From a virus, in IMG/VR virus record IMGVR_UViG_3300043409_000868, positions 5,007 through 69,006 of that record: a DNA stretch of 64,000 nt. One strand, 5' to 3'. A program made the position numbers and the translations under genes. The notes below the pieces were generated by a model that was not told where the DNA came from, did no database searches, and saw only the letters and a list, made by a program, of their open reading frames with translations. Below are positions 8,206 to 62,834 of the stretch, piece by piece. The first letter of the stretch is position 1. Every line of letters starts with the position of its first letter.

Positions 8206-8220
8206 GGAAGCATTAAATTT

Positions 8221-11907: not shown

Positions 11908-11910
11908 GTT

Positions 11911-24151: not shown

Positions 24152-24197
24152 GGATGTTAGCTGTCGCTAACAAACGTACCTATGCGTTACATAGGAT
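24152..24197 (+). repeat. 46-nt intergenic direct repeat A, copy 1 (two hairpins)
   Basis: GGATGTTAGCTGT(C/T)GCTAACAAACGTACCTATGCGTTACATAGGAT, repeated at 24361-24406. Confidence 0.9.
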
Positions 24198-24360: not shown

Positions 24361-24406
24361 GGATGTTAGCTGTTGCTAACAAACGTACCTATGCGTTACA
24401 TAGGAT
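24361..24406 (+). repeat. 46-nt intergenic direct repeat A, copy 2
   Basis: One mismatch to copy 1. Confidence 0.9.
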
Positions 24407-24681: not shown

Positions 24682-24734
24682 GTAGCTAAGAGGCTACCCA
24701 AGCTCCCTAGGGAAACCTAGGGAGCGAAGGGCTG
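24682..24734 (+). repeat. 53-nt intergenic direct repeat B, copy 1 (GAAA-tetraloop hairpin)
   Basis: GTAGCTAAGAGGCTACCCAAGCTCCCTAGGGAAACCTAGGGAGCGAAGGGCTG, repeated at 24967-25019. Confidence 0.9.
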
Positions 24735-24791
24735 TATCTTAACAGCACATGTGTACCTATGCACTACATAGGATATTTCAAGGAGATCCAA

Positions 24792-26928: not shown

Positions 26929-26950
26929 CCTTGATCGCCATCACAACCTC

Positions 26951-26980
26951 GCACTCCCTAGGGGAAACCTTAGGGAGTGC
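26951..26980 (+). other. Strong hairpin (terminator or RNase III-like site)
   Basis: GCACTCCCTAGGG-GAAA-CCTTAGGGAGTGC, related to the repeat B core. No U-tract. Confidence 0.55.
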
Positions 26981-27067
26981 CTTGGGCATTTTGCCCACCT
27001 CGTCTACAGGAGTTCTCTGTAGAAGATACCTGTTTGTCTTAAAAACAGGCTATTAGGAGCATGTCAC

Positions 27068-27475
27068 ATGAGTGACATCAACGTTGGTTCGCGTCAGGTC
27101 ATCCGCAACTCCGAAGGCAAGGTTGTCGGGACTTTCCTCCCGTCAAAGAAACACTTCGGCAAGTTTGCGGTTACCACGTTCCTTCCGTCTGGCGAAGCGC
27201 ACACCACAATCAAGGGAGTATCTGATTGGGTCATGATCACGGAGCGCAACCCAGACTGGACATTCTCTCCGTCTTACTACACCGTTGCGTGTGGTAAGGA
27301 GGGTGATGAGGTGGTGATTGAACTGACGCACAACAGTGTTCCAGAGTGGAACACTACGTTTCGCGTGCCACACGCAATGAACTGGCAGGATTCGTTCCTG
27401 ATCTCGTTCCGCATGGGCATGATGTCTCTGGGTCGTGAGACGCACATCGGCAACTTTGTCGATCTCACGGTCTGA
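27068..27475 (+). CDS. Hypothetical early protein (135 aa)
   Basis: AGGAG SD, GC-rich codon usage like the adjacent RNAP. Confidence 0.7.
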   Translation: MSDINVGSRQVIRNSEGKVVGTFLPSKKHFGKFAVTTFLPSGEAHTTIKGVSDWVMITERNPDWTFSPSYYTVACGKEGDEVVIELTHNSVPEWNTTFRVPHAMNWQDSFLISFRMGMMSLGRETHIGNFVDLTV

Positions 27476-27638: not shown

Positions 27639-27682
27639 CCATACCATACCCATACCATACCCATACCATACCCATACCATAC
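27639..27682. repeat. (CCATACCATAC)x4 tandem repeat
   Basis: Four exact 11-nt units in a non-coding region. Confidence 0.95.
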
Positions 27683-27820
27683 CCCTACCCAGCTTATAGA
27701 ATGCCGTAGCGGTCATCCTAGGGCCATTTCCTGCCATTCTACAAGGTATATCCAGCAGCTATCTATAAAAAATGCGTATAACTGTGGAATGCCCTGCTAA
27801 TTTCCCATATTATACTTATT

Positions 27821-27847
27821 TATCGTCCCCTTCGGGGACCGTGGTGG
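27821..27847 (+). promoter_or_regulatory. Candidate phage promoter, hairpin motif copy 1
   Basis: TATCGTCCCC-TTC-GGGGACCGTGGTGG. Confidence 0.7.
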
Positions 27848-27928
27848 AAATTGAGTAGTACTCAAGCCCAGATATAATATAGATCAGAGCGTAAACTATC
27901 TATAGATATATCTGAATTAGGAGACAAC

Positions 27929-28192
27929 ATGTCTGATCCCAATACGCCTGACATCTCCGTTGATCCCATCGCAGCTGTTTTTCCTGTTGATCCCGTTGCT
28001 ACAATGCTTCGGACTGGCCAAATTCTCATCACTCTCAAAGGTGAGTCAAATTGGCCTGGGAATTACAAGAACCTGAATGACCGTCAAATCATGAATTTGA
28101 TCAAGATGGTTCAAGAAGGTCGAGCTAACAAGCCAGAGACGGTCAAGGCTATCCTGCGGGAAGCGTTGGATCGTCAACTCATCTCGCCATGA
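27929..28192 (+). CDS. Hypothetical protein (87 aa)
   Basis: AGGAG SD, located between motif copies 1 and 2. Confidence 0.7.
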   Translation: MSDPNTPDISVDPIAAVFPVDPVATMLRTGQILITLKGESNWPGNYKNLNDRQIMNLIKMVQEGRANKPETVKAILREALDRQLISP

Positions 28193-28193
28193 G

Positions 28194-28220
28194 TATCGTC
28201 CCCTAAGGGGACCGTGGTGG
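28194..28220 (+). promoter_or_regulatory. Candidate phage promoter, hairpin motif copy 2
   Basis: TATCGTCCCC-TAA-GGGGACCGTGGTGG. Confidence 0.7.
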
Positions 28221-28250
28221 TCTATAGGGAAACCTATAGATCATCTTTCA

Positions 28251-28336
28251 GGTCTATCAAGAGCCTATACATAAATCTTGGTGCAAACATCAACTAGGTA
28301 GCCAATCTGGAGGCTAAGTAGTGCTCTTAATGATGT
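28251..28336 (+). ncRNA. Hatchet-like ribozyme candidate
   Basis: UC|U, P1 TATCAAGA/TCTTGGTG, CAA linker, P2 ACATCA/TGATGT, P3 ACTA/TAGT, P4 TAGCC/GGCTA and 3' TAGTGC..TTAA. Lacks the G-rich strand expected between P2 and P3. Confidence 0.35.
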
Positions 28337-28365
28337 AGCTTATAGTGTAGCTTACTATAAGTATT

Positions 28366-28458
28366 CACCTAAGCATGTGTTTAAACTGCTTACGCTGTCC
28401 AAGAACGGTAGTCATAAGTTTCTTGGTATTCACCTAAGCAATGTGCCTAAACTGCTTA
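28366..28458 (+). repeat. Two tandem copies of a compact pseudoknot motif (further copies at 28880-28905 and 28964-28991)
   Basis: CAC-CTAAGCA-(A)TGTG-NNTAAAC-TGCTTA. Confidence 0.75.
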
Positions 28459-28576
28459 CTTTGTTAACTACTGGCTGTGCCAGAGTTTGGTACCACAATG
28501 TCCGCCAAAAACCTATAATAGGGCGGTATAAAAATACTATACCATTACGGTACATAGGTAAATTGCGTATACCGCG

Positions 28577-28647
28577 ACTCAACTAGATGAGTATAAATAG
28601 GGTTTAAGTCTAGTGCGCCCCCTTCCATTTTACGATGGGGGGTACCC
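28577..28647 (+). ncRNA. Pistol self-cleaving ribozyme
   Basis: P1 ACTCA/TGAGT, loop ACTAGA pairing with TCTAGT, ATAAAT linker, P2 GGGT/ACCC, TTAAG, GCG, P3 CCCCC/GGGGG. GU cleavage site at 28642-28643. Confidence 0.85.
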
Positions 28648-29046
28648 AGCGAGGGTAACAATAATTGAATCATACCTCAACTCTTCTGTTGACATCCATT
28701 CAATTTTAGAAGTATTGTTATCTAGACTAAACAGCAATTGTTAAGTTTGCCGAGTCACACAATTGCTGGGATCAATAAACTCGGATCTTCCTACACAAAG
28801 GGGCACCTTTGTATAGGAGTTTACCGCAAGCAACCTAGCCCATAGGCGGTATATAAATAGTGGGACATTATACTGTGTAGACCTAAGCATGTCAAAAAAA
28901 GGCTTTGGATTTAGGGTATGATAAGACTATCCTAGCATATCACCTAAGGTATGTATAACTTTCACACCTGAATATGTGTTTAAACTATTTACAGATTACA
29001 ATACACCTAGGCGTACTAGGTATTACTTTATTGGAGATATATTTAA

Positions 29047-29298
29047 ATGACTGATTCAGGTATCCGTATTGCGCTTTGGGAAGTCAACAGTGAGAATCCC
29101 AACAGCCCTAAGTTCAATGGTATTGTTACTATTGATGGTAAGGAGCACAAGGTATCCCTTTGGGATAATTCGGCAGCTACGCACCCTAAAGCCCCAAGGC
29201 TTAAGGGAAAGACGAGCCGACCAAGTCCAAAGGTTGAAGAAGAGTCCATGATTACTGAGATTATCTGTGTCCCTATGGGCACGAATCTCCCCTTCTAA
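29047..29298 (+). CDS. Small DUF736-like putative ssDNA-binding protein
   Basis: N..SPKFNG.VTIDGKEHKVSLW pattern and C-terminal LPF. Confidence 0.5.
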   Translation: MTDSGIRIALWEVNSENPNSPKFNGIVTIDGKEHKVSLWDNSAATHPKAPRLKGKTSRPSPKVEEESMITEIICVPMGTNLPF

Positions 29299-29302
29299 TC
29301 AG

Positions 29303-29336
29303 GGGGTACTTAGGGAAACCTAAGTACCCCTTTTTT
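29303..29336 (+). terminator. Rho-independent terminator
   Basis: GGGGTACTTAGG-GAAA-CCTAAGTACCCC followed by T6. Confidence 0.9.
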
Positions 29337-29339
29337 CCG

Positions 29340-29458
29340 AATACCCTAGTATATAGCTAGGGTTTAACCTTAGGTTTATCACCTAAGAATAACCTAAGAT
29401 ACTTAGGTTATATAGTATTATTATTATAGTATTATATCACCTAAGTATTAACCTAAGA
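29340..29458. repeat. ACCTAAG short-repeat, AT-rich cluster (candidate origin)
   Basis: ACCTAAG x4 plus inverted CTTAGGT copies around TATAGTATTATTATTATAGTATTATAT. Confidence 0.55.
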
Positions 29459-29465
29459 GGGATAT

Positions 29466-29864
29466 ATGTCACACGAAATTGTTGAAGAAGTTGCTAAAAG
29501 GTTAGATGCTAAGGTTCTTATAAGATTTGAAGACAGCAATGGTTACCAAGGTGTAATCTATTATGTCTTAAGTAAGAGTAATACTTACTCTATTGTATCT
29601 GTTCACTACGGGACCTGTGCTCTTTGTGATTTTCAACTTGGTTTGATTGAAGAATACCGAGAAATGTGGCCTGATGTTAATAATGAGATTCCCCTTAGTG
29701 CTTTCGAGCCTATGATTCAATCTCTTTTTAAAGATGTTGAAGAGTTTGGATTCCATTCAGTTGAAGACCTTATCACTAAATTTGATATGATCTTTGGTGT
29801 TGGCTACAGTGAAGAACTTGTTCGTGAAGAAGTACTTAAGTATCTTCTTCGTAATTGTCTATAG
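29466..29864 (+). CDS. Hypothetical protein
   Basis: ORF with a GAGGG SD. Confidence 0.7.
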   Translation: MSHEIVEEVAKRLDAKVLIRFEDSNGYQGVIYYVLSKSNTYSIVSVHYGTCALCDFQLGLIEEYREMWPDVNNEIPLSAFEPMIQSLFKDVEEFGFHSVEDLITKFDMIFGVGYSEELVREEVLKYLLRNCL

Positions 29865-29874
29865 GAGAATAATT

Positions 29875-30240
29875 ATGGGTCTTGATACTTATGCTGTATA
29901 CTCTAGTAAACATCCTAATTATACTCAGGATGGGGATAACTCCATACCTGACACATTGTTCCCCGATAACAACCTGTGTGGTGGGATGTTTAGTGGAATG
30001 GGTGCCTCATTTCGAGGCAAACGTTACAATGACTATGTAGAATGGGCAACTGGGGTTTCCCTTTATGATCGTTTAATTGATTCAGAAGTTGTCCAAGATA
30101 TGTATATCTCACTAAAGAATGCTGACTTTAGGCAGTATCGTGGTGATAATTGGGGTATTACTAAAGAAGAAACAAAACAACTAACGGAATGGTTCCGTGT
30201 AGTTAGTGAAGAAAATGGCTCTATTGCAGGATGGTGGTAA
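29875..30240 (+). CDS. Hypothetical protein (MGLD... family)
   Basis: AGGAG SD, MGLDTY start and WW end typical of phage early proteins. Confidence 0.7.
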   Translation: MGLDTYAVYSSKHPNYTQDGDNSIPDTLFPDNNLCGGMFSGMGASFRGKRYNDYVEWATGVSLYDRLIDSEVVQDMYISLKNADFRQYRGDNWGITKEETKQLTEWFRVVSEENGSIAGWW

Positions 30241-30241
30241 C

Positions 30242-30613
30242 ATGTATACAGTTGATATGTCTATTGTTAATAAGAAGGTTCAACAGCGTGTAGAGAAGAT
30301 CCAAACTGTAGCTAACGCTAAGAAGATTCCTTTGATTGCTGCTGCTATGTGGGTAGACCAGAATGGTCCCGAGAGCACCAATAAGAAGATGTTGGCTGAG
30401 ATTGGTATGAACTTTGATGAGGTTACATTGGATAACTACAAGGATGTTCTTGTTGGTCTTGAGTGTATCAATGTCAAGGTTGTATGGCAAGAGAATCATC
30501 CTCTTACCCGTGTTGTTGAGCAACTCAATGAAGTAATTAATGAAACAATTACTGAGTGTTGGGGTGGCGAAGACATGCAAGAGTTTATTGAACTTACTCC
30601 TATCTTCGAGTGA
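30242..30613 (+). CDS. Hypothetical protein
   Basis: ORF coupled to the previous gene. Confidence 0.65.
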   Translation: MYTVDMSIVNKKVQQRVEKIQTVANAKKIPLIAAAMWVDQNGPESTNKKMLAEIGMNFDEVTLDNYKDVLVGLECINVKVVWQENHPLTRVVEQLNEVINETITECWGGEDMQEFIELTPIFE

Positions 30614-30637
30614 AGGTACACAAAATACGGATAATCT

Positions 30638-30895
30638 ATGTCTGAATCAAAATCTTTAGTCGCATTCAGTGGCTATCACGCTAAGATTAATCCAACCCTT
30701 AGCGTTAACTTTAATAGTTCTTATCGCAGTGAAGATAAGCATAACTATAAGTGTACATATGAGGTTGTTGTTGATGGTAATGCTGCTTGGCTTACCATTG
30801 AAGAAATTTATTCTCTTGTAAATCATTTACAAAAGATTCTTTCTATTTCTAATCAAATCCCACACATTGGTAATGTAAATGTTTACCCTTCCTGA
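30638..30895 (+). CDS. Hypothetical protein
   Basis: ORF within the operon. Confidence 0.55.
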   Translation: MSESKSLVAFSGYHAKINPTLSVNFNSSYRSEDKHNYKCTYEVVVDGNAAWLTIEEIYSLVNHLQKILSISNQIPHIGNVNVYPS

Positions 30896-30954
30896 TGATG
30901 AGTTTAATTGGTTGTTCTCTTATAACACGGATGGTGGACGAGTAGTCCATCAAG

Positions 30955-31155
30955 ATGATGAGGAACGAGATGAATATGGAAATCAACCGTCTGAAGTCGA
31001 GACTGATCCTCAATACGGATGCCTCGACCGCTGGTCGAATTAATGAGTTGTTTGAGCGAGGAATCATAGCTGATTTCTCTGAAGATGGATGGGTACTTTA
31101 CCATAAAGAGTGGTATCCATTCAACACTTTCCTTGAAAGGATTAAGTATGTCTAG
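30955..31155 (+). CDS. Hypothetical protein
   Basis: ORF overlapping the next start. Confidence 0.55.
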   Translation: MMRNEMNMEINRLKSRLILNTDASTAGRINELFERGIIADFSEDGWVLYHKEWYPFNTFLERIKYV

Positions 31156-32110
31156 TGTGTTTAATTTTGTTGGTGCTACAGTCGAGGGTCTTTCTCTCGA
31201 AAAGGCAACCAGTCTAGCTGAGATGAATTGGAGCGTAAGTAAGCGTCCTATTTATGTCTCAGATATTTCTGAAGGAAAGAATAGCAATGAACTATTCTCT
31301 ACGAGTAAGTTCTTTGCTACTACTAGGGATGATACAAATCAAATCCTTGGTATCGTTGGACCTGATTATCAGGTTGTTCAAAACAGCGAGCTTGCCTATA
31401 TGTGTGAGCGTCTTCAGGGATCTGATGTAAAGATTGAGACTGCTGGTATCCTTGATAACGGTCGCCGAGTCTTTATTCAGATGCGTGGAAATCCATTTGA
31501 TGTTGGTCCTAAGCACGATACCAACATCCCTTATACCTTGTTCACTAATGGACATGATGGACAATGGCCCCTTAGTTCGTTGCCTACTTCTTATCGAGTG
31601 ATCTGTCAGAATACTCTGAACATGGCACTACAGAATGGTAGCAAGACTAATATGATTATCAGTATCCGACATACTGGTAACATGCAAGATCGTCTTGAGT
31701 CTATGTTCCAATCAATTCAGAATTGGAAGGATCGTACTGTTACTTTCCAGAATCAAGTAGAACTACTTGCTCGTAAGGAAGTTAATACCGAGCTTGTCCA
31801 AAGCTTCTGGACTAATCTCTATGTAAATTTGTTTGGAGATATCCATGAAAATCCTACTACAGAGGAACATTTGGACAATAACAAATCCGCAATGTCAACA
31901 ATGACTACGTGGAGTAATACATTTGACTCCGAGGTTAAGTTGAGTGGTGCTAACATGTGGACTGCAGCTAATGCAGTTACTTCATGGTTGGATCACAACC
32001 AAATCTATCGTGGTGTAAAGAAGAATGAAAACAGGTTCAATGATACGCTCTTTGGCACTGGTGCCAAGGAGAAGGTTCGTACTATGAACTATGCTCTGAC
32101 TGCTATCTAA
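31148..32110 (+). CDS. DUF932 / LGT_TIGR03299-family protein
   Basis: LGIVGPDYQVVQN, IETAGILDNGRRVF, TNGHDG, RVICQNTL, IRHT motifs. Confidence 0.85.
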   Translation: MSSVFNFVGATVEGLSLEKATSLAEMNWSVSKRPIYVSDISEGKNSNELFSTSKFFATTRDDTNQILGIVGPDYQVVQNSELAYMCERLQGSDVKIETAGILDNGRRVFIQMRGNPFDVGPKHDTNIPYTLFTNGHDGQWPLSSLPTSYRVICQNTLNMALQNGSKTNMIISIRHTGNMQDRLESMFQSIQNWKDRTVTFQNQVELLARKEVNTELVQSFWTNLYVNLFGDIHENPTTEEHLDNNKSAMSTMTTWSNTFDSEVKLSGANMWTAANAVTSWLDHNQIYRGVKKNENRFNDTLFGTGAKEKVRTMNYALTAI

Positions 32111-32114
32111 TTAT

Positions 32115-32153
32115 AGGGTAACCTAGGAAGTAATTCCTAGGTTACCCTTTTTT
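32115..32153 (+). terminator. Rho-independent terminator
   Basis: AGGGTAACCTAGGAA-GTAA-TTCCTAGGTTACCCT followed by a T-tract. Confidence 0.9.
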
Positions 32154-32228
32154 ATTTTACTATGAAAAAAATTATTGATGTTACTGTTCGTATAATTTTA
32201 TATGATCAACTCAATGTTATAGATACAT

Positions 32229-32708
32229 ATGAGGAAAGGAAGTGTACTGTCCTTGAAGATTCACCTAATTGTTTATCGATTACAGAATGTAATAGATCCT
32301 TTGTCAACCATGTATCAACGAGTCTTCTCAACATGGAACCACTGTGCGATACAAGTTGATGATATTGTCATACATTTCTATGATGATTTACCTTTACCTA
32401 GGTGGACAGAACTAAATGTAGATGTTAAACTTCCACATTGTAGAACATCTATAGATCTTGGTGAAACTACTAAGACTTGGCAGGAGATACGAGAGTTCAC
32501 AAATAATCTACCTAACATGCGTACTATAGATTATATAGTTAGATATCTCTCTCCCCTAACTCTTTTTAAATTTCCAAAAAAACATAATGATTGTATACAC
32601 AAATGCAGTCAAACCTTACAATTTATGTTTGGGTGTGATATAATAACATCTACCCCAGATAAACTCCTAGAATACATGAAAGAATTTAATGATAAAAGTA
32701 GGCACTAA
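32229..32708 (+). CDS. Hypothetical protein (start uncertain)
   Basis: ORF between the terminator and thyX. Confidence 0.5.
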   Translation: MRKGSVLSLKIHLIVYRLQNVIDPLSTMYQRVFSTWNHCAIQVDDIVIHFYDDLPLPRWTELNVDVKLPHCRTSIDLGETTKTWQEIREFTNNLPNMRTIDYIVRYLSPLTLFKFPKKHNDCIHKCSQTLQFMFGCDIITSTPDKLLEYMKEFNDKSRH

Positions 32709-33414
32709 AGGATTTGTAACTTTAATTGAGACTCTTGGTTCTGATTTAACTATTGTTAATGCAGCTAGGGTTTCATTTAATAAAATTAGTAAGTGGGATG
32801 AAGATGCATCCCTTGTAGACAATAATGGATTGCTTGATGTTACGTATAAATTAAATGATAAAGATAAACATCTTATTCATTACTTGGCAAAGCATGATCA
32901 CTGGACTCCCTTTGCACATCCTCAGATTTGTTTACATATTAAGGCACCTATCTCTATTCGTACACAATTCTTTAAGCATAAGGTAGGATTTGTAGAAAAT
33001 GAATTGTCTCGTCGTTATGTTGATGAAGAACCAGAATTCTTCTATCCTGAGTGGTCATCTAGACCTACAGGATCTATGAAGCAGGGTGCTGGTGACAACC
33101 TAGATAATAATGATTCAAATCGTGCTGTATATTTCTATGATTATGCAGTTAAAGCTGCTAAGTCAGCCTATGATGATCTTATTAAGCTTGGCGTAGCCCC
33201 AGAACAAGCAAGATTTGTTCTACCTCAAGGTACTTATACCGAATGGTATTGGACTGGTAGTCTTGCTGCTTATGCAAGGTTTTATAAACAACGATCTAAC
33301 TCTCACGCTCAAGCAGAAATTAGAGACTATGCAGATGTAATTAGTACAATTATTAAGCCTTTGTTTCCCATTAGTTGGAATGCGCTTACTAATACTTTTG
33401 TAACTCCTCAGTAA
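32689..33414 (+). CDS. thyX: Flavin-dependent thymidylate synthase
   Basis: IVNAARVSF, HWTPF, KHK..ENELSRRY, PEQARFVLP, HAQAEIR. Confidence 0.95.
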   Translation: MIKVGTKGFVTLIETLGSDLTIVNAARVSFNKISKWDEDASLVDNNGLLDVTYKLNDKDKHLIHYLAKHDHWTPFAHPQICLHIKAPISIRTQFFKHKVGFVENELSRRYVDEEPEFFYPEWSSRPTGSMKQGAGDNLDNNDSNRAVYFYDYAVKAAKSAYDDLIKLGVAPEQARFVLPQGTYTEWYWTGSLAAYARFYKQRSNSHAQAEIRDYADVISTIIKPLFPISWNALTNTFVTPQ

Positions 33415-33446
33415 CCACGCTTGTAGCTATGCTACACTCAAAAAAT

Positions 33447-33470
33447 TATCGTCCCCTTCGGGGACCATTG
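33447..33470 (+). promoter_or_regulatory. Candidate phage promoter, hairpin motif copy 3 (directly upstream of the main RNAP)
   Basis: TATCGTCCCC-TTC-GGGGACCATTG. Confidence 0.7.
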
Positions 33471-33487
33471 TGACACAAAGGAGAACA

Positions 33488-35923
33488 ATGCTAGAATCTT
33501 GGCATAAATTAAGTGTGGAAGAAAAGTCTCGTAGAACAACAATGCAAAAGATCTACGAGGAAGAGTTGCTTGAAAATGGTGTTGAAAAATATTGGAAAGA
33601 GTATGGTAGGTCACCTGATGAAGGTAAGCCAGAACAACTGCTACTTGAATCAGCTGTAATACATCTCACTCCTTATTACCAAAAATGGATTGATGAATGT
33701 TGTAGTAATCGTAAGTCACCTGATTGGCTAGCACCTTTACTTAGTATTGGTGCAGCTAAGATGGCAGATATTACTCTTCGATCAATGATGAGATTGTTTC
33801 TAACAAGAAATACAATCCAAAGTTTTGATGATACAATGGGTATCCCAGCTAATGCTCCTGTTGCTCAACAAGTAGCAAAGCTTATCTCTGAGGATGTTGT
33901 ATCTATTGTTGCTTATCAACAAGCAAAGAAACGATTCTCTGAAGATTGGCGTAAGCAATCTAAGTTCATTAAGAACTGGACTGTTAAGCGGTGCAAAGCA
34001 TTTACATCTAAAGTTGCTAAGATCCCTAAGCTAAGGCCTAAGGAGAAAGAAGACTTTGGTCACAACATGCTTAGAGTTGCCCTCTCTAGTGATATCCTCA
34101 CTAGTAGGATTCATTGGAATGGTAAAAATAAAAAGTCATTACTAGTATCTTTCTCTCCTTGGATCTTATGTGAAATCCAAAAGAGACATGAGCTACTAGA
34201 GACAGCTTGCCTTGTTTACAGGCCAATGATCTCACCACCCATCCCACATACAACTAAAGAAGATGGTGGGTTTCTCAGCCCCTGGGTGCGTAAGAAGATG
34301 ATCAAGAGATATCATCCTGTTGGAGCAGATCCAAAGGAGTGGGACTCAAGACCATCCCCTATGGTTCTTAAAGGTCTTAATGCTTTAATGGAAACAGAGT
34401 GGTCAGTTAACACTCAAGTCTACCAAGTCATGAAGACTATGTTTGAGAATGATTATAAGGCTGCTAACATTCCTGCATACACATTCAGAGACTATGCTTT
34501 CTCTAGGGAGTATCCCATTGATGGGACCAAAGAAGAGAAAGCTAAGTGGATGCAAGAATCTAATGAAGCATGGGGCGAGTGGTATAAGGAAGAACAATCA
34601 CGATCTAGAATGATCGTTAGATTAGAGTTGGCAAGAAAGATGATTCAATGGAACTTCTTTTATATGCCATACACCCTTGACTTTAGAGGACGTACCTATT
34701 CGGTATGTGAACTTCTATCTCCTCAAGGTATTGACTTTGATCGAGGACTTGTTCACTTTGGAATGCCACGTAAACAAACTAAAGAAGGTTTGTATTGGTT
34801 GTATGTCCATGTAGCAAATCTATTTGATCAAGACAAGAAACCATTTGACCACCGTGTTAAATGGGTTAAAGATAATATGGATCTCTTCCTCCGTATTGCT
34901 GATGATCCATATGCTAATAAAGAATGGATTGATCCAAGTAAGAAGAAGAATAAATCATTTCAAAGATTGGCTGCTATCTTTGAGGTATGCAGGACAGATG
35001 GACTAACACAACTCCCTGTTCAAATGGATGGTGCAAATAATGGTGGTCAACATTGGGCTGCTATTATGCGTAATAAGAAACTTGGTATCCTAACTAATCT
35101 TATTAAAACAGAAAAGCCACAAGATCTCTATCAGTATGTAGCTGATGCTGCTACTGAGTTTATGAAAGAGAATCCAACTAATAGATGGTATCCTGCATTT
35201 CTAGAGTATTGGGATAATAGACTTCCTCGTAGTGTAACTAAGCGTTCTACTATGTGTGATGCTTATGGTCTTACATTCTATGGTATGCAGAAATATGTCA
35301 AGCAAGAGGGTCATGTAGATTGGGTAAGTAAAGAACAAAGAGGTGGAGCTGTAGTAGAACTAGCTCGCGCTATCCAAGTTGGCCTAGGTGAGACAATGCA
35401 ATCGCCTAACCTAGGCAAAGTTTGGCTACGAGAAGTAGCTACTATTCTTAACTCTTTAAACAAACCTTTTGTATGGACTACACCTAGTGGCTTTGAGGTA
35501 CATCATGTTTATAATCAAATACTTGAACGAGTCAGTTATGCTGAGTTGTTTAATCGTCAGCAACTTGTTTTCAGCACTGTTACGGAAGACCTTAATGGTA
35601 AAGCACAATATCTTGCAATTTCTCCAAACTATATCCATTCGCTAGATGCTGCTCATATGTTTATGACAATTTCTAGGATGTTAGATACAGGTATGAGTGC
35701 CTTTTCATTTGTCCATGATTCTTATGGAACATATGCACCTGACATTCCTGTCATGCATAAGCTATTGCGAGAAGAATTCATCAAGATTCATAAGGAGAAT
35801 CAACTTGAAAACCTCAAAAAAGAAATTGAAAAAAGATATGGAATCTATCTCCCCGAAGTCCCCACCCAAGAAGAAGGTTTTGACCTCCAAGAAGTCGTTG
35901 AATCAGAATACTTCTTCGCTTAA
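33488..35923 (+). CDS. T7-like single-subunit DNA-directed RNA polymerase
   Basis: DFRGR, motif A MDGANNGGQH, motif B RSVTKRSTMCDAYG, PNYIHSLDAAH, motif C VHDSY. AAGGAG SD before ATG 33488. Confidence 0.97.
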   Translation: MLESWHKLSVEEKSRRTTMQKIYEEELLENGVEKYWKEYGRSPDEGKPEQLLLESAVIHLTPYYQKWIDECCSNRKSPDWLAPLLSIGAAKMADITLRSMMRLFLTRNTIQSFDDTMGIPANAPVAQQVAKLISEDVVSIVAYQQAKKRFSEDWRKQSKFIKNWTVKRCKAFTSKVAKIPKLRPKEKEDFGHNMLRVALSSDILTSRIHWNGKNKKSLLVSFSPWILCEIQKRHELLETACLVYRPMISPPIPHTTKEDGGFLSPWVRKKMIKRYHPVGADPKEWDSRPSPMVLKGLNALMETEWSVNTQVYQVMKTMFENDYKAANIPAYTFRDYAFSREYPIDGTKEEKAKWMQESNEAWGEWYKEEQSRSRMIVRLELARKMIQWNFFYMPYTLDFRGRTYSVCELLSPQGIDFDRGLVHFGMPRKQTKEGLYWLYVHVANLFDQDKKPFDHRVKWVKDNMDLFLRIADDPYANKEWIDPSKKKNKSFQRLAAIFEVCRTDGLTQLPVQMDGANNGGQHWAAIMRNKKLGILTNLIKTEKPQDLYQYVADAATEFMKENPTNRWYPAFLEYWDNRLPRSVTKRSTMCDAYGLTFYGMQKYVKQEGHVDWVSKEQRGGAVVELARAIQVGLGETMQSPNLGKVWLREVATILNSLNKPFVWTTPSGFEVHHVYNQILERVSYAELFNRQQLVFSTVTEDLNGKAQYLAISPNYIHSLDAAHMFMTISRMLDTGMSAFSFVHDSYGTYAPDIPVMHKLLREEFIKIHKENQLENLKKEIEKRYGIYLPEVPTQEEGFDLQEVVESEYFFA

Positions 35924-36185
35924 GAATGTATCTTATCCAGCTAGTATTCCTCGTCTAGTCAAGGTAACTTGGGTAGACGCTATGACTGTTGGAGGAGCTG
36001 AGTGGTTAGGTAAGGAAGAAGCTAAGACTTCCGCTAAAGAACCATTACCAATGATGTTAACAGTAGGGTTTGTTCTACATAATGATGATGAACAAATCTC
36101 TTTAACTGCTACCATTGGACCATGTGAGACTGCTCAAGTAAATAAAATACCAAAGAGAATGATTATTAAAATTGAGGAAGTGTAA
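35838..36185 (+). CDS. Hypothetical phage protein (V.V.W.DA...TVGF family), start uncertain
   Basis: LVKVTWVDA, TVGF and IPKRMI pattern. Confidence 0.6.
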   Translation: MESISPKSPPKKKVLTSKKSLNQNTSSLKNVSYPASIPRLVKVTWVDAMTVGGAEWLGKEEAKTSAKEPLPMMLTVGFVLHNDDEQISLTATIGPCETAQVNKIPKRMIIKIEEV

Positions 36186-36322
36186 TGGCAGAGCAGAAAA
36201 ATATACGTAAGAAAGATATCCGTGAGTTTAATCCAGAGAAGTATAAAAGAGAACAGGATAAGAAACGAAGACAACTACAACGCCGAGAGGCTAGGAGTAA
36301 GAGTCATGAACCAAACATATGA
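36185..36322 (+). CDS. Small basic protein (45 aa)
   Basis: GAGGA SD, TAATG coupling, MAEQKNIRKKDIREF... Confidence 0.5.
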   Translation: MAEQKNIRKKDIREFNPEKYKREQDKKRRQLQRREARSKSHEPNI

Positions 36323-36491
36323 CAAATCGTCCCCTACGGGGACCGCTGTAGATCATTTAAATATCTACCAACAAATGCATTTACAAGGTACTTTTAATGT
36401 ATACGAACCTATTGAACAGATTAATGGAGATCCTTTGCCACCACTAGCTGTACAATGGAAGGAAGACGCAAAGCGTAGATGGGGTAGATAA
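36306..36491 (+). CDS. Hypothetical protein
   Basis: ORF coupled to the phosphoesterase. Confidence 0.45.
   Translation: MNQTYDKSSPTGTAVDHLNIYQQMHLQGTFNVYEPIEQINGDPLPPLAVQWKEDAKRRWGR
36325..36346 (+). promoter_or_regulatory. Candidate phage promoter, hairpin motif copy 4
   Basis: AATCGTCCCC-TAC-GGGGACCGC. Confidence 0.65.
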
Positions 36492-37144
36492 TGAAAACAT
36501 TAGTAATTGGTGACTTGCATTGTCCAGCAGACCATGAAGACTATTTTAAATTCTGTAAGGACATGCAGAAAAAATATAAAACAAACAATACTGTATTCAT
36601 TGGTGACATTATTGATCACGAATCAATCTCAGCACACGATAAGAATCCTTCATTGCCAGGAGCATTAGATGAGTTTCAACAAGCAGTAAGTCGTGTCCGT
36701 AGATGGTACGATGCATTTAAATATGCATCTGTATGCATTGGTAATCATGATGCCAGAGTACATAAGAAAGCAATAAAGAATGGCATTCCTGAAATTTATA
36801 TTAAGACTTATTCAGATATTTATAGCACTCCTAATTGGAAGTGGGATTATAATCATGACTATAGTGGTGTGTTTTATACTCATGGTGATGGTTGGGGTGG
36901 TCAGTATCCTGCTTTCAATGCTTCCAAGGCAAGACTTCAATCAGTAGTATGCGGACATCATCATAGTCTAGCTTCTATCAATTGGATTAAAGGCCCGACA
37001 ACCATGTATTTTGGTATGAATGTAGGCTGCGGTGTTGATCAAAGACACGCGGCCTTCGCATATTCAAAACCACATCTTAAGAGAGCCGTCCTTAGTTGTG
37101 GTATAGTAATCGACGGCGTTCAACCCTATTTGGAGATCATGTAA
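36491..37144 (+). CDS. Calcineurin-like metallophosphoesterase
   Basis: GDLH, GDIID, GNHD, THGD and GHHH motifs. Confidence 0.9.
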   Translation: MKTLVIGDLHCPADHEDYFKFCKDMQKKYKTNNTVFIGDIIDHESISAHDKNPSLPGALDEFQQAVSRVRRWYDAFKYASVCIGNHDARVHKKAIKNGIPEIYIKTYSDIYSTPNWKWDYNHDYSGVFYTHGDGWGGQYPAFNASKARLQSVVCGHHHSLASINWIKGPTTMYFGMNVGCGVDQRHAAFAYSKPHLKRAVLSCGIVIDGVQPYLEIM

Positions 37145-37323
37145 TGAGTGACAACCAAGAGAAACAAGTACCAGCTGTACCTACGGAAGCAGTTGTGGCT
37201 TATCTATCTGACCTATATCGGCAGCTAGATGCAATCAGTTTTAATATCCGTACAAACATTTCAAATATCCTACCCAAAGTAGAAGGAGAAGTAACTAATG
37301 CCAGTAGCGAACAACAAGTCTAA
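37144..37323 (+). CDS. Small hypothetical protein
   Basis: TAATG coupling. Confidence 0.55.
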   Translation: MSDNQEKQVPAVPTEAVVAYLSDLYRQLDAISFNIRTNISNILPKVEGEVTNASSEQQV

Positions 37324-37786
37324 ATACGCAAAATCTTTTGTGACAGGTAATGTAGTTGTCAAGTGGTCACACTTGATGGCACCAGATGATAAGTTCGGAA
37401 ACCCAAATCATTCCGTAACTGTTGAGCTTACACCTGAACTGCATAAGCAGATTCAATCATCTGTTAAAGAACTAGGTGGCAAGAAAATCAATGGCTTTAA
37501 GGATCAAGATGGACTTAAGACAATTAAGTTTAAGAATGTTCTTAAGGCTAAGGAAGGTGTTAAGGTATTCCCTGTGATCGGACCTGATACTAAACCATCA
37601 GAGACGATTCCCTTTGGTACTGATGTGGTTAGGGTTAAGGTAACCCCTGCTTTGATTAGTCGTGATGATTCTGTTTCATTCTATATGGAATCAATTCAAC
37701 TAATTGAACGTAACTATATTAGTACTGGGTCTGAGTTTACTGATGTAAGTAATACTCCTATCAGTAATAGTGATATCCCCTTCTAA
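37298..37786 (+). CDS. ssDNA-binding protein (T7 gp2.5-like)
   Basis: WSHL..PDDKF N-terminus, SIQLIE, acidic DIPF C-terminus. Confidence 0.8.
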   Translation: MPVANNKSKYAKSFVTGNVVVKWSHLMAPDDKFGNPNHSVTVELTPELHKQIQSSVKELGGKKINGFKDQDGLKTIKFKNVLKAKEGVKVFPVIGPDTKPSETIPFGTDVVRVKVTPALISRDDSVSFYMESIQLIERNYISTGSEFTDVSNTPISNSDIPF

Positions 37787-37796
37787 GGAGTAATGC

Positions 37797-38189
37797 ATGA
37801 TGGAGTATAAGTTCCCAATAAACCCAGTAGCTGCATCCCGACCAAGGATCAGTAAATTCGGCGCGTATTTTACGGGACCTTATAAGAAGTTTCGTTCAGC
37901 AGCGGCTATGGTTATTAACCAAGTCCTTGGGCGAAACTTCGCTCCATTGAGCAATAAACTTGCAGTTGATATTAGATGCTATGTTACAAGACCAAAGTCA
38001 ACTAAGTTAGAATATCCTAGAGCTGATGTAGATAACTACAGCAAAGGTATTTTAGATTCGTTGAATGGTAAATTGTGGGTAGATGATTCACAAATCTGGG
38101 CTTTGTTCATTTCAAAAGAATGGGCAGAACCTGGTGAAGCTGGATACTTTATTGTATCATTAGAGGAAATCAAAGTTGGACATCGCTAA
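37797..38189 (+). CDS. rusA: RusA-family Holliday junction resolvase
   Basis: PVAASRPR and DVDNYSKGILDSLNG..WVDDSQI. Confidence 0.9.
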   Translation: MMEYKFPINPVAASRPRISKFGAYFTGPYKKFRSAAAMVINQVLGRNFAPLSNKLAVDIRCYVTRPKSTKLEYPRADVDNYSKGILDSLNGKLWVDDSQIWALFISKEWAEPGEAGYFIVSLEEIKVGHR

Positions 38190-38547
38190 GTATCGTGATA
38201 TCGCATATAAGGAATTTCAAAACATCAATCAACACCGTAGCCACAATCATGTATCTTTAATTCTACAAGGAGGTAAGTTACATGGTATTGGAACTAACAA
38301 GAGGAAAACCCATCCGTTAGCCATGAAATATGGCTATCGGAGCTGTGAACTCCACAGTGAACTCGATGCCCTCATCCAAATTCCAAGATGGGATCGGAAT
38401 GATTTGCTTTTGATTAACTTTAGGTTTGGTCCAAAGGGAGATATGAAACTTTCCAAGCCTTGCGCTTTATGCCTACCTTGGTGTATACAAGCGTTTGATG
38501 AAATTTATTATTCAGTACCCGATGGACTTGTTCAGTTGGAGTATTAA
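38176..38547 (+). CDS. Zn-dependent cytidine/dCMP deaminase-fold protein
   Basis: HSE...SKPCALC motifs. Confidence 0.75.
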   Translation: MDIAKYRDIAYKEFQNINQHRSHNHVSLILQGGKLHGIGTNKRKTHPLAMKYGYRSCELHSELDALIQIPRWDRNDLLLINFRFGPKGDMKLSKPCALCLPWCIQAFDEIYYSVPDGLVQLEY

Positions 38548-38553
38548 GGTTAA

Positions 38554-38642
38554 GCTATTGACTGGTGTCAATTATACCTAGCATGTTCGCAGACGTGTTA
38601 ACTATATGTGGTATAATGGAGGTTCGATTCCTCCAAGTAGCT
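38554..38642 (+). ncRNA. tRNA-like element (acceptor and T-arm, no canonical D or anticodon arm)
   Basis: GCTATT/AGTAGC acceptor, GGAGG-TTCGATT-CCTCC T-arm, long ATTATACC/GGTATAAT arm. Confidence 0.5.
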
Positions 38643-38648
38643 TTCTAT

Positions 38649-38722
38649 GGAAGGGTGCCTGAACTGGAGGAAGGCCGTGACTTATAATCGCGTACATGTG
38701 GGTTCGAGTCCCACCCCTTCTA
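38649..38722 (+). tRNA. tRNA-Ile(UAU)
   Basis: Cloverleaf with anticodon arm CGTGA-CTTATAA-TCGCG and T-loop TTCGAGT. No encoded CCA. Confidence 0.88.
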
Positions 38723-38775
38723 CTTTATGGGGAGACGTTCTCCCCTGTTTTTATCGCAAAAGACTGTGAGGTCAC

Positions 38776-39057
38776 ATGGACCTAGAAGATGACACACACA
38801 TGAGTAATGTAACTCAAGACACAACTATTGTAAATATCCCTGTTAACCTTACCCCCCAACTAATGGAAGCACTTGTTGATGCTTTGCTAGCAAGTAAGTT
38901 TTTTAAGACAACAATCAACAACTCTCTTGATGATTATTTCCGTCATGAATTTGATATCAATGATCACATGGGTAGCTTTGAATTCAGCGATCTTAAGGAT
39001 GATCTTCTTGATGGATTGGTTGAAGATGTAATTTCAAATATTAAGGATCGACTTTAA
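38776..39057 (+). CDS. Acidic hypothetical protein
   Basis: GAGGT SD. Confidence 0.65.
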   Translation: MDLEDDTHMSNVTQDTTIVNIPVNLTPQLMEALVDALLASKFFKTTINNSLDDYFRHEFDINDHMGSFEFSDLKDDLLDGLVEDVISNIKDRL

Positions 39058-39530
39058 TGAAGAAAATGATTATGAAGAAGTGGGTTAAGGCTCTTCGTTC
39101 TGGCAACTACAAGCAGTGCAAAGAAGACCTATGTCAAGTAGATGATAAGGGTAACCTTAGTTACTGCTGCCTTGGTGTACTTACTCAACTGTATATCAAT
39201 GAACGTAAGCGACAAAAGAAGGGTAATAACATTGAGGGGTTTGTTCACATGGGTAACTATGAAGAAACCTATGGCTATTCCCCTGATATAAATAGTGAGG
39301 GTACTCCTGCTTGGTACATTAATGAAGAAACTGGACTACTTCCAAACGAAGTTGCTAAGTGGGCAGGATTTGATATGCTTCGTCCAGGATGGGGAGCAGG
39401 TAGTATTCATGGATTCCATGAAGACAGAAGCCTTAGTACCATGAATGATGGATACAAAGCTGTGTATCTTGAGCCTAAGTCTTTCAAGCAAATTGCAAAC
39501 ATTATCGAAAAGAATTACACAAACATTTAA
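39057..39530 (+). CDS. Phage hypothetical protein (KWVKALRSG.Y.Q...YCCLGV family)
   Basis: Recurrent phage motifs KWVxALRSGxYxQ, CCLGV, ND...SFxxIA. Confidence 0.75.
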   Translation: MKKMIMKKWVKALRSGNYKQCKEDLCQVDDKGNLSYCCLGVLTQLYINERKRQKKGNNIEGFVHMGNYEETYGYSPDINSEGTPAWYINEETGLLPNEVAKWAGFDMLRPGWGAGSIHGFHEDRSLSTMNDGYKAVYLEPKSFKQIANIIEKNYTNI

Positions 39531-39536
39531 TCACAA

Positions 39537-39610
39537 ATCCTCATAGCTCAACTGGATAGAGCAACAGCCTTCTAAGCTGTAGGTTGCTGGTTCGATTCCA
39601 GCTGAGGATG
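39537..39610 (+). tRNA. tRNA-Arg(UCU)
   Basis: ATCCTCA/TGAGGAT acceptor, anticodon arm ACAGC-CTTCTAA-GCTGT. Confidence 0.95.
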
Positions 39611-39633
39611 TATTTAATTTAAGGAACACACCT

Positions 39634-40068
39634 ATGCACCCAACAATCTATTCTCTTATCGCTATTACTATAATTACTATTCTTAACACTTGGTTGTGGT
39701 ACTCAATGTACAAGAAGATGTTATGTATTAATCAAAAATGCAATGATCTAACTAATCGTTGTGATGCCCTATGTAGACATGTTCAAACTCTAGATAGGAG
39801 TTTTTCAGACTTTACTCATATGTTAGTACACAGAGTAGAGAAAATGGAACTTCAATGTCATGACTTTGAAATTCGAGATGAGTTCAGTGAAGCTGATGTC
39901 TATTCTCTTCAAGATGAAATCTCACAACTACAAAGTGATGTTAAGTTTTTTAGTCCATTGACTACACTTGTTACTAAGTATAGCATTAAAGAACAAATTG
40001 TAGAAAATACAAAGAAGTTAAATGAGTTAAAGGCTAAGCTAAAGGAGATTGAGCGTGAACTCAAATGA
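39634..40068 (+). CDS. Membrane-anchored coiled-coil protein
   Basis: N-terminal TM segment followed by a heptad pattern. Confidence 0.65.
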   Translation: MHPTIYSLIAITIITILNTWLWYSMYKKMLCINQKCNDLTNRCDALCRHVQTLDRSFSDFTHMLVHRVEKMELQCHDFEIRDEFSEADVYSLQDEISQLQSDVKFFSPLTTLVTKYSIKEQIVENTKKLNELKAKLKEIERELK

Positions 40069-40261
40069 ATTACTTTTATTACTTGAAAATGCAATCGACA
40101 CTTCGGTACATAGTGACTACCACTCTGGCTACACAGCCAAAGAAATTCACCGTAAATGTATTGCCCATATTAAACTTTTGGATAAAGCCATCCAAACATT
40201 GACAGACGCGCGCAATAGCCAACCATATAGCTTAGGTTGGGGAAAAGGTAAAGATGAATAA
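40049..40261 (+). CDS. Hypothetical protein
   Basis: ORF within the operon. Confidence 0.5.
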   Translation: MSVNSNELLLLLENAIDTSVHSDYHSGYTAKEIHRKCIAHIKLLDKAIQTLTDARNSQPYSLGWGKGKDE

Positions 40262-40399
40262 TCAATTAACAGTTGAAGAACAGTATATGATTGATCATGG
40301 TATGCGTCAATGTGGTCTTTGTGGTTGTTGGGATTATGTAGATAGCCACCACGGAGATTGTAAAATTTGTTCAACAGCACAATATGGAGCTGATTAAGA

Positions 40400-40762
40400 A
40401 TGCTTAATAAAGTCAATGAAACATTTAAAATTATATACAATTCTATAGATGAAATGGAAGCAACTATTAATGAACAACGCGCTGAGATTAAACGACTTCG
40501 TGAGCAGCGTGACGAGGCTCAAGTTGATCAACAATTGATTGAGGAACTGTGGGAGCGGCGAACAGATGCAAGCGAGGCGAACGCAAAGATTCGCCAACTG
40601 TTAGGAGATACCGAACAGTTGCTCAAAGAGCGCGACGAGGCGCGGCGTGAAGTGTGTCGGCTAATTGGTGGACACATAGACGAAAACAATAATCTAATTG
40701 GCAACGAGAATGATTGTGCTTTGTGGCGCGGTTGGGACTGCTACAAGGAGGAATCACCATGA
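40400..40762 (+). CDS. Coiled-coil protein (ERDEARR type)
   Basis: RDEA repeats, GWDCY end, GC-richer patch. Confidence 0.65.
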   Translation: MLNKVNETFKIIYNSIDEMEATINEQRAEIKRLREQRDEAQVDQQLIEELWERRTDASEANAKIRQLLGDTEQLLKERDEARREVCRLIGGHIDENNNLIGNENDCALWRGWDCYKEESP

Positions 40763-41037
40763 GTCCAGAAGCACAAAAGATTGCAATTGCTACAGCGTGT
40801 GGAACAATGCAATGGGGTTACGCATGTGTGCCGCATAAAATTGTGCATTGCGATGTCCCAGATTATCTCAACGATCTCAACGCTATGTACAGAGCGGAAG
40901 AGACGCTGAATAGCAACCAATGGGAAACTTGGCATCGCATTGTCGGAAACTGGACTACTGACAGAGCGCACCTAACTGCCGCTCAACGAGCGGAGGCGTT
41001 CCTGCGGACGCTTGGACTGTGGGAGGAGAAACCATGA
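40759..41037 (+). CDS. Hypothetical phage protein (PDYLNDLNAM...TAAQRAEAFL)
   Basis: GGAGG SD and a recurrent phage motif. Confidence 0.7.
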   Translation: MSPEAQKIAIATACGTMQWGYACVPHKIVHCDVPDYLNDLNAMYRAEETLNSNQWETWHRIVGNWTTDRAHLTAAQRAEAFLRTLGLWEEKP

Positions 41038-41094
41038 CAGAAATAGAAGAAGCAGACTATTGGAATAATTATTTCAAGTCACATTACAAATAAC

Positions 41095-41118
41095 TAGCGT
41101 CCCCTAACGGGGACCATT
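41095..41118 (+). promoter_or_regulatory. Candidate phage promoter, hairpin motif copy 5 (upstream of the tRNA pair and DNA replication genes)
   Basis: TAGCGTCCCC-TAAC-GGGGACCATT. Confidence 0.65.
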
Positions 41119-41120
41119 TT

Positions 41121-41202
41121 GGCTTCGTGGCGGAATCGGCATACGCAGCGGACTTAAAATCCGTAGCCGCAAGGCGTGGGGGTTCAAGTCCCCCCGAAGC
41201 TA
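41121..41202 (+). tRNA. tRNA-Leu(UAA)
   Basis: GCGGA-CTTAAAA-TCCGT anticodon arm and long variable arm. Confidence 0.95.
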
Positions 41203-62815: not shown

Positions 62816-62834
62816 TAGTAATTAATCATTAACC

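Follow-up and report, generated by a model that had tools for sequence, protein, structure and literature searches.

The DNA analysed here, hereafter the window, is a stretch of 64,000 nucleotides (nt) corresponding to bases 5007–69006 of the 69,006-base-pair (bp) IMG/VR record IMGVR_UViG_3300043409_000868, which has terminal repeats. Its source is an uncultured freshwater T7-like phage, and the plus strand carries every gene of the window. Five copies of a short hairpin cassette are found in the early to middle part of the window, together with two genes for single-subunit RNA polymerases. One encodes a canonical T7-like enzyme of 811 amino acids (aa) at 33488–35923 (+), recognised by phrog_414 (E 3.6e-150) and PF00940 (E 4.6e-82). 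The other, at 25105–26928 (+), encodes a cryptic minimal enzyme of 607 aa, assigned from its motifs, predicted fold and family profile and called the mini-polymerase below. PHROG and Pfam scans give a T7-like gene set (primase/helicase, DNA polymerase, exonuclease, ribonucleotide reductase) and the structural genes for portal, scaffold, major capsid protein, tail tube and terminase. Four tRNAs and one pistol ribozyme are also detected. Among GenBank phages the closest match of the 811-aa polymerase is just 28% identical, so the phage has no close cultured relative.

The pattern GTCCCC-N3/4-GGGGAC has exactly five matches in the window, starting at 27825, 28198, 33451, 36329 and 41099, and none in 100 dinucleotide-preserving shuffles. 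The full record holds the same five hairpins and no additional ones, and the reversed-pattern control gives zero. The stem is 6 bp in all copies, while the loop is 3 nt in four of them and 4 nt in one; the loops of copies 1–5 are TTC, TAA, TTC, TAC and TAAC, which read GAA, TTA, GAA, GTA and GTTA on the template strand. GC-rich 6-bp hairpins with loops of 3–4 nt number 20 in the window, whereas 200 shuffles average 2.8 and reach at most 9, and among these 20 the five cassettes are the sole recurring family. Since the stem is palindromic, the orientation is read from the flanks. On the plus strand all five copies carry a 5' flank (T/A)A(T/G)C and a 3' flank C-(G/A)-N-K-(G/T)-T-R-(G/A), whose conserved R-G lies at loop centre +14/+15 and coincides at copy 5 with the first base of tRNA-Leu. 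The unit is an oriented cassette of about 27 nt, more than a 15-nt palindrome.

Cassette A (copy 1; 27821–27847, +; loop TTC) lies 897 nt 3' of the mini-polymerase gene and about 90 nt 5' of an open reading frame (ORF) at 27929–28192. Cassette B (copy 2; 28194–28220, +; loop TAA) stands directly 3' of the stop codon of this ORF and precedes a non-coding array of about 0.85 kilobases (kb) with the pistol ribozyme; at the same site relatives have the loops TAGC, TGAC or TTC. Cassette D (copy 3; 33447–33473, +; loop TTC) ends 22 nt before the ATG (33488) of the 811-aa polymerase. Cassette E (copy 4; 36325–36351, +; loop TAC) lies 3' of the stop codon (36320–36322) of a small basic ORF (36185–36322) and is an in-frame 27-nt insertion within the first codons of the ORF 36306–36491. 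Cassette G (copy 5; 41095–41122, +; loop TAAC) ends 6 nt before tRNA-Leu (41121) and is followed by the primase/helicase gene (41573–43288, +). The pattern scan of the window and of the whole record finds no cassette ahead of the structural genes. An initial annotation of this DNA had pointed out five GTCCCC/GGGGAC stems in one orientation, with these starts and loops, upstream of an early ORF, the non-coding array, the main RNA polymerase, the DNA-metabolism block and the tRNA/primase block. Our pattern scan and the flanks confirm the stems and their placement, which is refined for copy 2, directly after an ORF stop, and for copy 4, in frame within an ORF. Its remark that no copy precedes the structural genes, so that a separate late promoter class is needed, stands for the whole record.

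On the coding strand the hairpins are followed by CGTGGTGG, CATTGTGA, CGCTGTAG or CATTTTGG. There is no T-run after any copy, and therefore the cassettes are not intrinsic terminators. On the plus strand a terminator scan lists no copy but copy 5, and on the gene-free minus strand it lists three copies.

The 607-aa ORF has no match in Pfam, PHROGs, NCBIfam or PDB sequence searches. It contains, in order, the motifs DxxGR (residues 169–173), motif A (D270), motif B (K330 and Y338-G339) and motif C (H539-D540), and D169-G172-R173, D270, K330, Y338-G339 and H539-D540 are invariant in 13 sequences of 51–100% identity. BLASTP and hhalign align these motifs to their equivalents in the 811-aa enzyme and in T7 RNA polymerase. 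The hhalign comparison of the mini-polymerase alignment with T7-like enzymes (E 0.0074, probability 5%) is suggestive only, and a profile search of PDB sequences with this alignment gives no match. The AlphaFold model has a predicted local distance difference test score (pLDDT) of 75.1 and a predicted template modelling score (pTM) of 0.69. In a fold search it is closest to RNA polymerases belonging to the single-subunit, T7-like family, with a Foldseek E of 4.7e-12 against T7 RNA polymerase and 77 matches at E ≤0.001. The best structural alignment pairs model residues 89–605 with T7 residues 284–882. As it begins only at about T7 residue 284, the model lacks an equivalent for most of the T7 N-terminal domain, which engages the upstream duplex and opens it. 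This domain has the AT-rich recognition loop and the intercalating hairpin (as excerpted from PMC4496689 and from general knowledge). A profile search of 1.84 billion protein representatives recovers 39 clusters at 50% identity, mostly of 520–640 aa. The PF00940 cut-off is reached by 22 of 34 scanned family representatives, by none of the nine closest and not by the 607-aa ORF; its membership in the PF00940 family is thus transitive, through those profile-found relatives. Judged by motifs and predicted fold, the 607-aa ORF is an RNA polymerase with the T7-family catalytic core from DxxGR onward.

The mini-polymerase gene forms a module with two adjacent ORFs of 135 aa (27068–27475, +) and 87 aa (27929–28192, +), which was found by comparing all window proteins with five related records. 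In tblastn searches the module ORFs are present in G002 and G010, two cassette-bearing records in which the region is covered, and absent from the complete cassette-free record G006, where a profile search does not find a mini-polymerase homologue either. The module is an island of 48–51% GC, compared with 31–44% GC in the rest of the genome, and contains no recognisable transposase or nuclease. The 135-aa ORF adjoins the mini-polymerase gene in nine of nine loci searched with tblastn. Nothing significant is found for it in NCBIfam or PHROGs, and its model (pLDDT 75.6) has a best PDB match at only E 0.13, i.e., no fold match; it is possibly a cofactor. The 87-aa ORF, located between cassettes A and B, is matched in seven of the nine loci (tblastn), a count that includes a match cut by the contig end in L193 and is bounded by L191 and L192, which stop before its position. 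Positions 27639–27683, between the mini-polymerase module and cassette A, contain four tandem copies of an 11-nt unit, CCATACCATAC; these repeats may mark a genome end or an origin region.

The linkage between mini-polymerase and cassette was analysed with the mini-polymerase alignment as query against IMG/VR and JGI metagenome contigs, which gave 13 rows. Nine of them have at least 865 nt of downstream sequence, and in all nine the cassette is found at +865 to +895 (the window copy lies at +897). The other four rows end 2–823 nt past the polymerase gene and are not scorable. The nine rows correspond to eight distinct contigs, L189 and L198 being one and the same, and to about four lineages with 61–84% polymerase identity. 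Further cassettes occur before and after the large polymerase gene of L195 and at two further sites of L190 (the same as L008). Such remote cassettes, 6–14 kb away, are seen only in the module-bearing window, L195 and L008 and in none of the loci without a close homologue. Remote homologues of the mini-polymerase, at 22–36% identity, are found in L031, L033, L030, L035, L011, L021 and L026. In L031 two related cassettes lie just upstream of a 23%-identical homologue; their 5' TC is unchanged, their stem is longer by one compensated G:C pair, and their 3' TG-GG is similar. In L033 a 10-bp hairpin with a GCAA loop occurs upstream of the remote homologue at positions 52, 243, 560 and 1083, with a second hairpin after each and a compensatory stem change in one of the four copies.

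A motif scan across relatives, as the initial annotation had proposed, was run on 45 IMG/VR loci collected with the 811-aa enzyme (27–100% identity). Copies of the cassette family are present in nine (L005–L008, L013–L015, L019 and L038), absent from 34, and two have off-family matches. The clade as a whole contains 19 distinct variants, all with one and the same stem. The 5' TATC flank is conserved as T in 17, A in 19, T in 16 and C in 19 of the 19, and the 3' box as C (19), G or A (14 and 5), N, K, G (17), T (17), R and G (18). The loops are TTC in nine variants, TAC in four, TAA and TAAC in two each, and TAGC and TGAC in one each, so that the first base is T in all 19 and the last base C in 17, with a free middle. 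From these T...C ends it follows that the template strand reads G-N-A or G-N-N-A closed by C:G. A template loop with 5' G and 3' A and a C:G closing pair is present in 17 of the 19 variants and in four of the five window copies. As a control, unrelated IMG/VR matches with the same stem have loops of every kind and no such bias.

Cassette-free relatives are shorter by 27–38 nt where the window has copies 3 and 4, and the copy 4 insertion preserves the reading frame in three different variants. At the copy 5 site cassette-free relatives have an unrelated hairpin that overlaps the upstream stop codon. No convincing degenerate copies, allowing up to two stem mismatches, are found in cassette-free relatives. 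The cassette-bearing records, of 12–47 kb, contain no copies beyond the early-middle region, and neither G006, a complete relative of 69,421 bp, nor any of three partial records has a cassette anywhere. In L008 and L013–L015 a cassette is inserted between a degenerate tRNA-like element and tRNA-Ile. The window has such a degenerate tRNA-like element, with the T-arm-like GGTTCGATTCC, at 38556–38640, just 5' of tRNA-Ile.

The distribution of the cassette does not follow the 811-aa polymerase. Across the clade there is hardly any variation in the segment of this enzyme aligned to the T7 specificity loop, and no alignment column separates five cassette-bearing from six close cassette-free large polymerases. 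The nearest relatives of the cassette-bearing large polymerases, at 90.8% and 90.4% identity, are cassette-free, and so is G006, whose large polymerase is 82% identical with the same specificity loop. For these reasons, on comparative grounds, phages of this clade can do without the cassette, and it does not serve the 811-aa enzyme as its specific promoter. A clade-wide promoter for this enzyme was sought through shared k-mers of 12 loci, direct repeats and inspection of late intergenic regions, which gave only coding-derived words. The candidate word AAGAATGT proved to be coding sequence. TCACCTAAG has five copies, all within 28.36–29.45 kb, and no late copies, and GTATAWAAATAG, with a count no better than chance, consists of words that are part of pistol-type ribozyme cores. 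A 12-nt stretch in a hairpin before tRNA-Leu of L016, L017 and L038, which we had taken to resemble the T7 promoter core, occurs once per locus, only at the orthologous site and with a variable loop, and was dropped. A sigma-70 scan of the window gives 48 sites, compared with 46 expected from shuffles. Immediately 3' of cassette A, at 27851–27878, a sigma-70-like TTGAGT-16-TATAAT with 10 of 12 matches may be a host early promoter.

From the motif, the structure and distribution of the cassette, the polymerase identity of the ORF, its linkage to the cassette and the lack of co-variation with the large polymerase, we infer the promoter function, the hairpin form, the start site and the timing given below. 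We propose, at an even chance, that the five cassettes are promoters of the 607-aa mini-polymerase, probably recognised as template-strand hairpins. The likely reader would then be the polymerase at 25105–26928, which the initial annotation did not name. In this proposal, the 6-bp GC-rich inverted repeat would be extruded or exposed as a hairpin of the template (minus) strand, with a G-N(N)-A loop closed by C:G. The mini-polymerase would recognise the invariant stem together with the single-stranded flanks and start with the G of the G-T-R-G box, about 11–15 nt past the loop centre. The folded form is favoured over a rigid duplex site because either 3 or 4 nt of loop are found between perfect arms. 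The units served would be the small early ORF, the ribozyme-bearing non-coding array, the large polymerase gene, the DNA-metabolism block and the tRNA/primase block. The mini-polymerase could act early, after host transcription, or could be carried in the virion.

A number of observations weigh against this proposal. The TAA loop, with template TTA and without the 5' G needed by N4, occurs in two of the 19 variants, including window copy 2, and at two independent sites. The central base of the template loop is a pyrimidine in copies 2 and 4, and the base equivalent to -8 is C instead of G. Nearest-neighbour DNA energies of -5.2 and -5.6 kcal/mol, calculated with no loop-specific terms, do not distinguish the two strands. 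Copy 4 lies within an ORF, and therefore transcripts from it would be without the start codon of this ORF. Another hairpin follows directly after window copy 2, and in L008 a terminator-like hairpin with a T-run stands directly 3' of one cassette. No recognisable cassette family accompanies the remote homologues of L011, L030 and L035, and the repeated hairpin of L033 has a GCAA loop of the stable type on the coding strand. Linkage to the cassette is no looser for the 135-aa and 87-aa ORFs than for the polymerase, and the partner of the cassette could equally be either protein, acting at the DNA or the RNA level. Other relatives have an unrelated hairpin at the tRNA-Leu site, and a generic RNA-hairpin role would also fit. 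Lake and freshwater metatranscriptomes include 11 RNA runs with parts of the region as assembled Logan contigs, four of which were compared with the window. The RNA contigs bridge copies 1–4 and cover the region from 27568 onward, where one contig starts; none covers 25268–27169, and contig breaks near 36207–36317 coincide with strain differences in cassette insertion. Assembled contigs of this kind reflect read-through RNA or DNA carry-over and say nothing on initiation.

Several of these points would be expected if the cassette acted in RNA, with the transcript hairpin and its flanks recognised by a small module protein or a host factor. It could stabilise or process polycistronic RNA, for example by protecting a 3' end after an RNase P cut before a tRNA, or it could modify elongation like nut or put sites. 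Every copy is co-oriented with transcription and stands at a gene border, metatranscriptome contigs contain copies, and copies are tRNA-adjacent at two sites, while cassette-free relatives have a different hairpin at the tRNA-Leu site. Copy 4 sits in frame within an ORF, so that transcription and translation certainly pass through it, the phage is rich in RNA hairpins (GAAA-tetraloop stems, ribozymes), and the tight linkage of the 135-aa and 87-aa ORFs agrees equally with such a role. However, the stem never co-varies among the 19 variants, which points to sequence-specific recognition and not to a generic barrier. UNC and UNNC loops are not stable RNA types, whereas the evident RNA hairpins of this phage have GNRA loops on the coding strand, and the fold search of the 135-aa protein gives no RNA-binding fold. 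An RNA role would also leave a polymerase that lacks the N-terminal domain without a candidate promoter, and we regard it as rather unlikely.

A palindromic element that is selfish or prone to recombination, spread by gene conversion or by a module function and without a dedicated regulatory role, would account for the patchy site occupancy among phages whose core genes are 82–90% identical, for the presence of one copy in frame within a gene and for copies 3, 4 and 5 being 27–38-nt insertions or replacements relative to close relatives. Repetitive extragenic palindromic (REP) sequences, miniature inverted-repeat transposable elements (MITEs) and the promoter-stem-loop cassettes of T4-type phages are elements of comparable kind. 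Yet the orientation is strict, the copies are confined to gene-block starts in the early-middle region, loop ends and flanks are under selective constraint, and the module has no recognisable transposase or nuclease. Mobility is in any case compatible with promoter function, and mobility as the whole explanation appears improbable. The hairpins could alternatively be priming or replication-initiation sites where the mini-polymerase lays primers, as the mitochondrial RNA polymerase primes at the light-strand origin. The phage, however, encodes its own primase/helicase, and its five copies lie within 13 kb and nowhere else, at gene-block starts and all oriented with transcription, which makes a priming role distinctly improbable. 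The conserved block of about 27 bp, AT-richer upstream and with a G-run where T7-group promoters start, also resembles a duplex promoter of the 811-aa polymerase starting at GGGG, which the initial annotation had named as its alternative, and the perfect dyad would fit a duplex operator for a dimeric DNA-binding protein. But the change between 3 and 4 nt in the loop displaces one half-site relative to the other, the asymmetric conserved flanks are unlike a symmetric operator, and there are no copies before late genes. The specificity loop is clade-invariant, yet the cassette is missing in close and complete relatives. Loop-length variation and the comparative data thus disfavour a duplex site, which we consider very improbable indeed.

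If the cassettes are promoters of the mini-polymerase, a wider and more tentative picture is that of a portable module, which we think possible but somewhat doubtful. It would link the smallest single-chain T7-family polymerase associated with a defined signal to a 27-nt cassette, in a GC-rich island that moves among freshwater T7-like phages. By seeding promoters ahead of core genes, even in frame within a gene and in front of the one for the large polymerase, the island would rewire a two-polymerase cascade.

The window also contains three consecutive giant ORFs of 1400, 1228 and 3999 aa 3' of the terminase gene (4003–23910). They have no match in Pfam, PHROG, PDB-sequence or phage tblastn searches, and no collinear set of polymerase motifs is found in them. 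For the C-terminal half of the largest ORF, the look-alikes in the Atlas are unnamed clusters, and a few of these carry large polyvalent protein (LPD) domains. For a virion RNA polymerase among the giant ORFs, the sequence-library and motif searches gave no signal.

The non-coding array behind cassette B and its surroundings carry several other elements. The pistol ribozyme lies at 28577–28647 (Rfam 50 bits, gathering score 34.5). A 45-nt element at 28823–28867 is 88–100% identical in relatives whose polymerase is only 64–72% identical; it consists of a hairpin and then a AUAUAAAUAG-type core that resembles the pistol consensus, and from this likeness it may be a second, variant pistol. A third pistol look-alike is located near 28500–28560. 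In the equivalent early non-coding region of L030, two repeat copies (2059–2089 and 2541–2571) contain CTGATGAG, which we take to be a hammerhead core word. Self-cleaving ribozymes seem to accumulate in the early region of this clade. A hairpin family whose loop is GGGAAACC (GAAA tetraloop) and whose stems co-vary occurs at 24708, 24993, 26962, 28225 and 29311 and in many relatives. Some members have T-runs and resemble intrinsic terminators (e.g., 29305–29345); further likely terminators are at 32115–32148, at 38729–38745 and after the capsid gene near 62834. A 22-nt unit, GTACCTATGCGTTACATAGGAT, is present at 24176–24197, 24385–24406 and 24753–24774 as two exact copies and one with two mismatches. 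Each precedes a small ORF and lies just 5' of its ribosome-binding site; no fewer than two of these ORFs are membrane-protein-like. These ORFs may be lysis genes, and the unit is a separate candidate regulatory signal. Between the stop codon of thymidylate synthase and the large polymerase gene, a hairpin TGTAGC-TAT-GCTACA (33420–33445) is found at the same site in most relatives. In some of them it reads TATAGC-ATA-GCTATA, a compensatory change, and therefore the structure is conserved.

Should the proposed pairing of mini-polymerase and cassette be true, minimal T7-family enzymes would recognise promoters by structure more widely than the mapped cases suggest, and such recognition could coexist with a classical T7-like polymerase in one genome. 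It would involve a family of polymerases of about 520–640 aa, the closest members of which escape Pfam and PHROG annotation. The compact polymerase and its candidate 27-nt signal would be a testable orthogonal expression pair, and the insertions would be a concrete case of promoters spreading as small cassettes. The literature searched holds nothing on a second small polymerase or on hairpin promoters in T7-like phages, which is no proof of their absence. As far as the available text of two papers goes, hairpin-type promoters have been mapped only in N4-like phages (PMC4496689, PMC9163698).

A comparison with known systems places the cassette nearer to these hairpin promoters than to the promoters of the T7 group. 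The latter are fixed duplex sites from -17 to +6 read by a full-length polymerase (PMC4496689, in the part available). Like them, the cassettes are short and autonomous, have one orientation, precede gene blocks and accompany a phage-encoded single-subunit polymerase. Their internal spacing varies, however, and they form a perfect dyad, do not co-vary with the full-length enzyme, have no late-gene copies and are absent from close relatives with the same enzyme.

The likeness to the early promoters P1–P3 of coliphage N4, with stems of 5–7 bp and read by a giant virion-carried RNA polymerase, is closer. A short inverted repeat around a 3-nt loop is common to the two, as are the 5' G and 3' A of the template-strand loop and the C:G closing pair, and both have a sequence-specific stem, a T7-family reader and a G start at a fixed distance downstream, the last two being proposed for the cassette. 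In N4 the G:C closing pair and the loop 5' G and 3' A are needed for extrusion and stability of the hairpin, and the virion RNA polymerase contacts a purine at the loop centre (-11) and the G at -8 of the template stem (PMC4496689, same excerpt). The cassette differs in that the -11 purine is present in only two of the four triloops, all copies have C as the third base of the stem counted from the loop (with inferred numbering), and a 4-nt loop occurs. The initial annotation had suggested an N4-type template-strand hairpin promoter. The kind of element fits, with its 3- or 4-nt loop, its G-N(N)-A in 17 of 19 variants and a linked polymerase that lacks the N-terminal domain, but the N4 contacts at -11 and -8 do not. 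In the same way, its statement that three of the five copies match exactly holds for the G-N-A loop and the C:G closing pair, while the central purine is present in two of the five only and the -8 equivalent is C. The polymerases it implied as readers fare less well: the giant ORFs are without polymerase signal, and the main T7-like enzyme does not co-vary with the cassette, one complete relative having no copy at all.

Within the available text of PMC9163698, the closest description to the cassette, by analogy, is that of the middle promoters of the Pseudomonas phage LUZ7. Their hairpin is GC-rich, has no fewer than 6 bp in the stem and 3–4 nt in the loop, and lies about 15 bp before a G start, and they are read by a small heterodimeric T7-like RNAPII together with Drc, a protein that binds single-stranded DNA (PMC9163698). 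Differences are clear in several respects. The polymerase here is a single chain missed by Pfam and PHROGs, and the phage, whose replication and structural genes are of the T7-like type, has a full-length T7-like polymerase besides. No virion polymerase is detectable and no Drc-like cofactor is identified in it, and its stem sequence is invariant with conserved flanks. Common to both are GC-richness, a stem of 6 bp or more and a 3–4-nt loop, and the LUZ7 start, a G about 15 bp downstream, has a candidate counterpart here in the conserved G at loop centre +14/+15 of 18 of 19 variants. In LUZ7 the reader is a minimal T7-family polymerase, and we propose such a reader here as well, with 607 aa compared with a total of 673 aa for N4 RNAPII (PMC4496689, in the part available).

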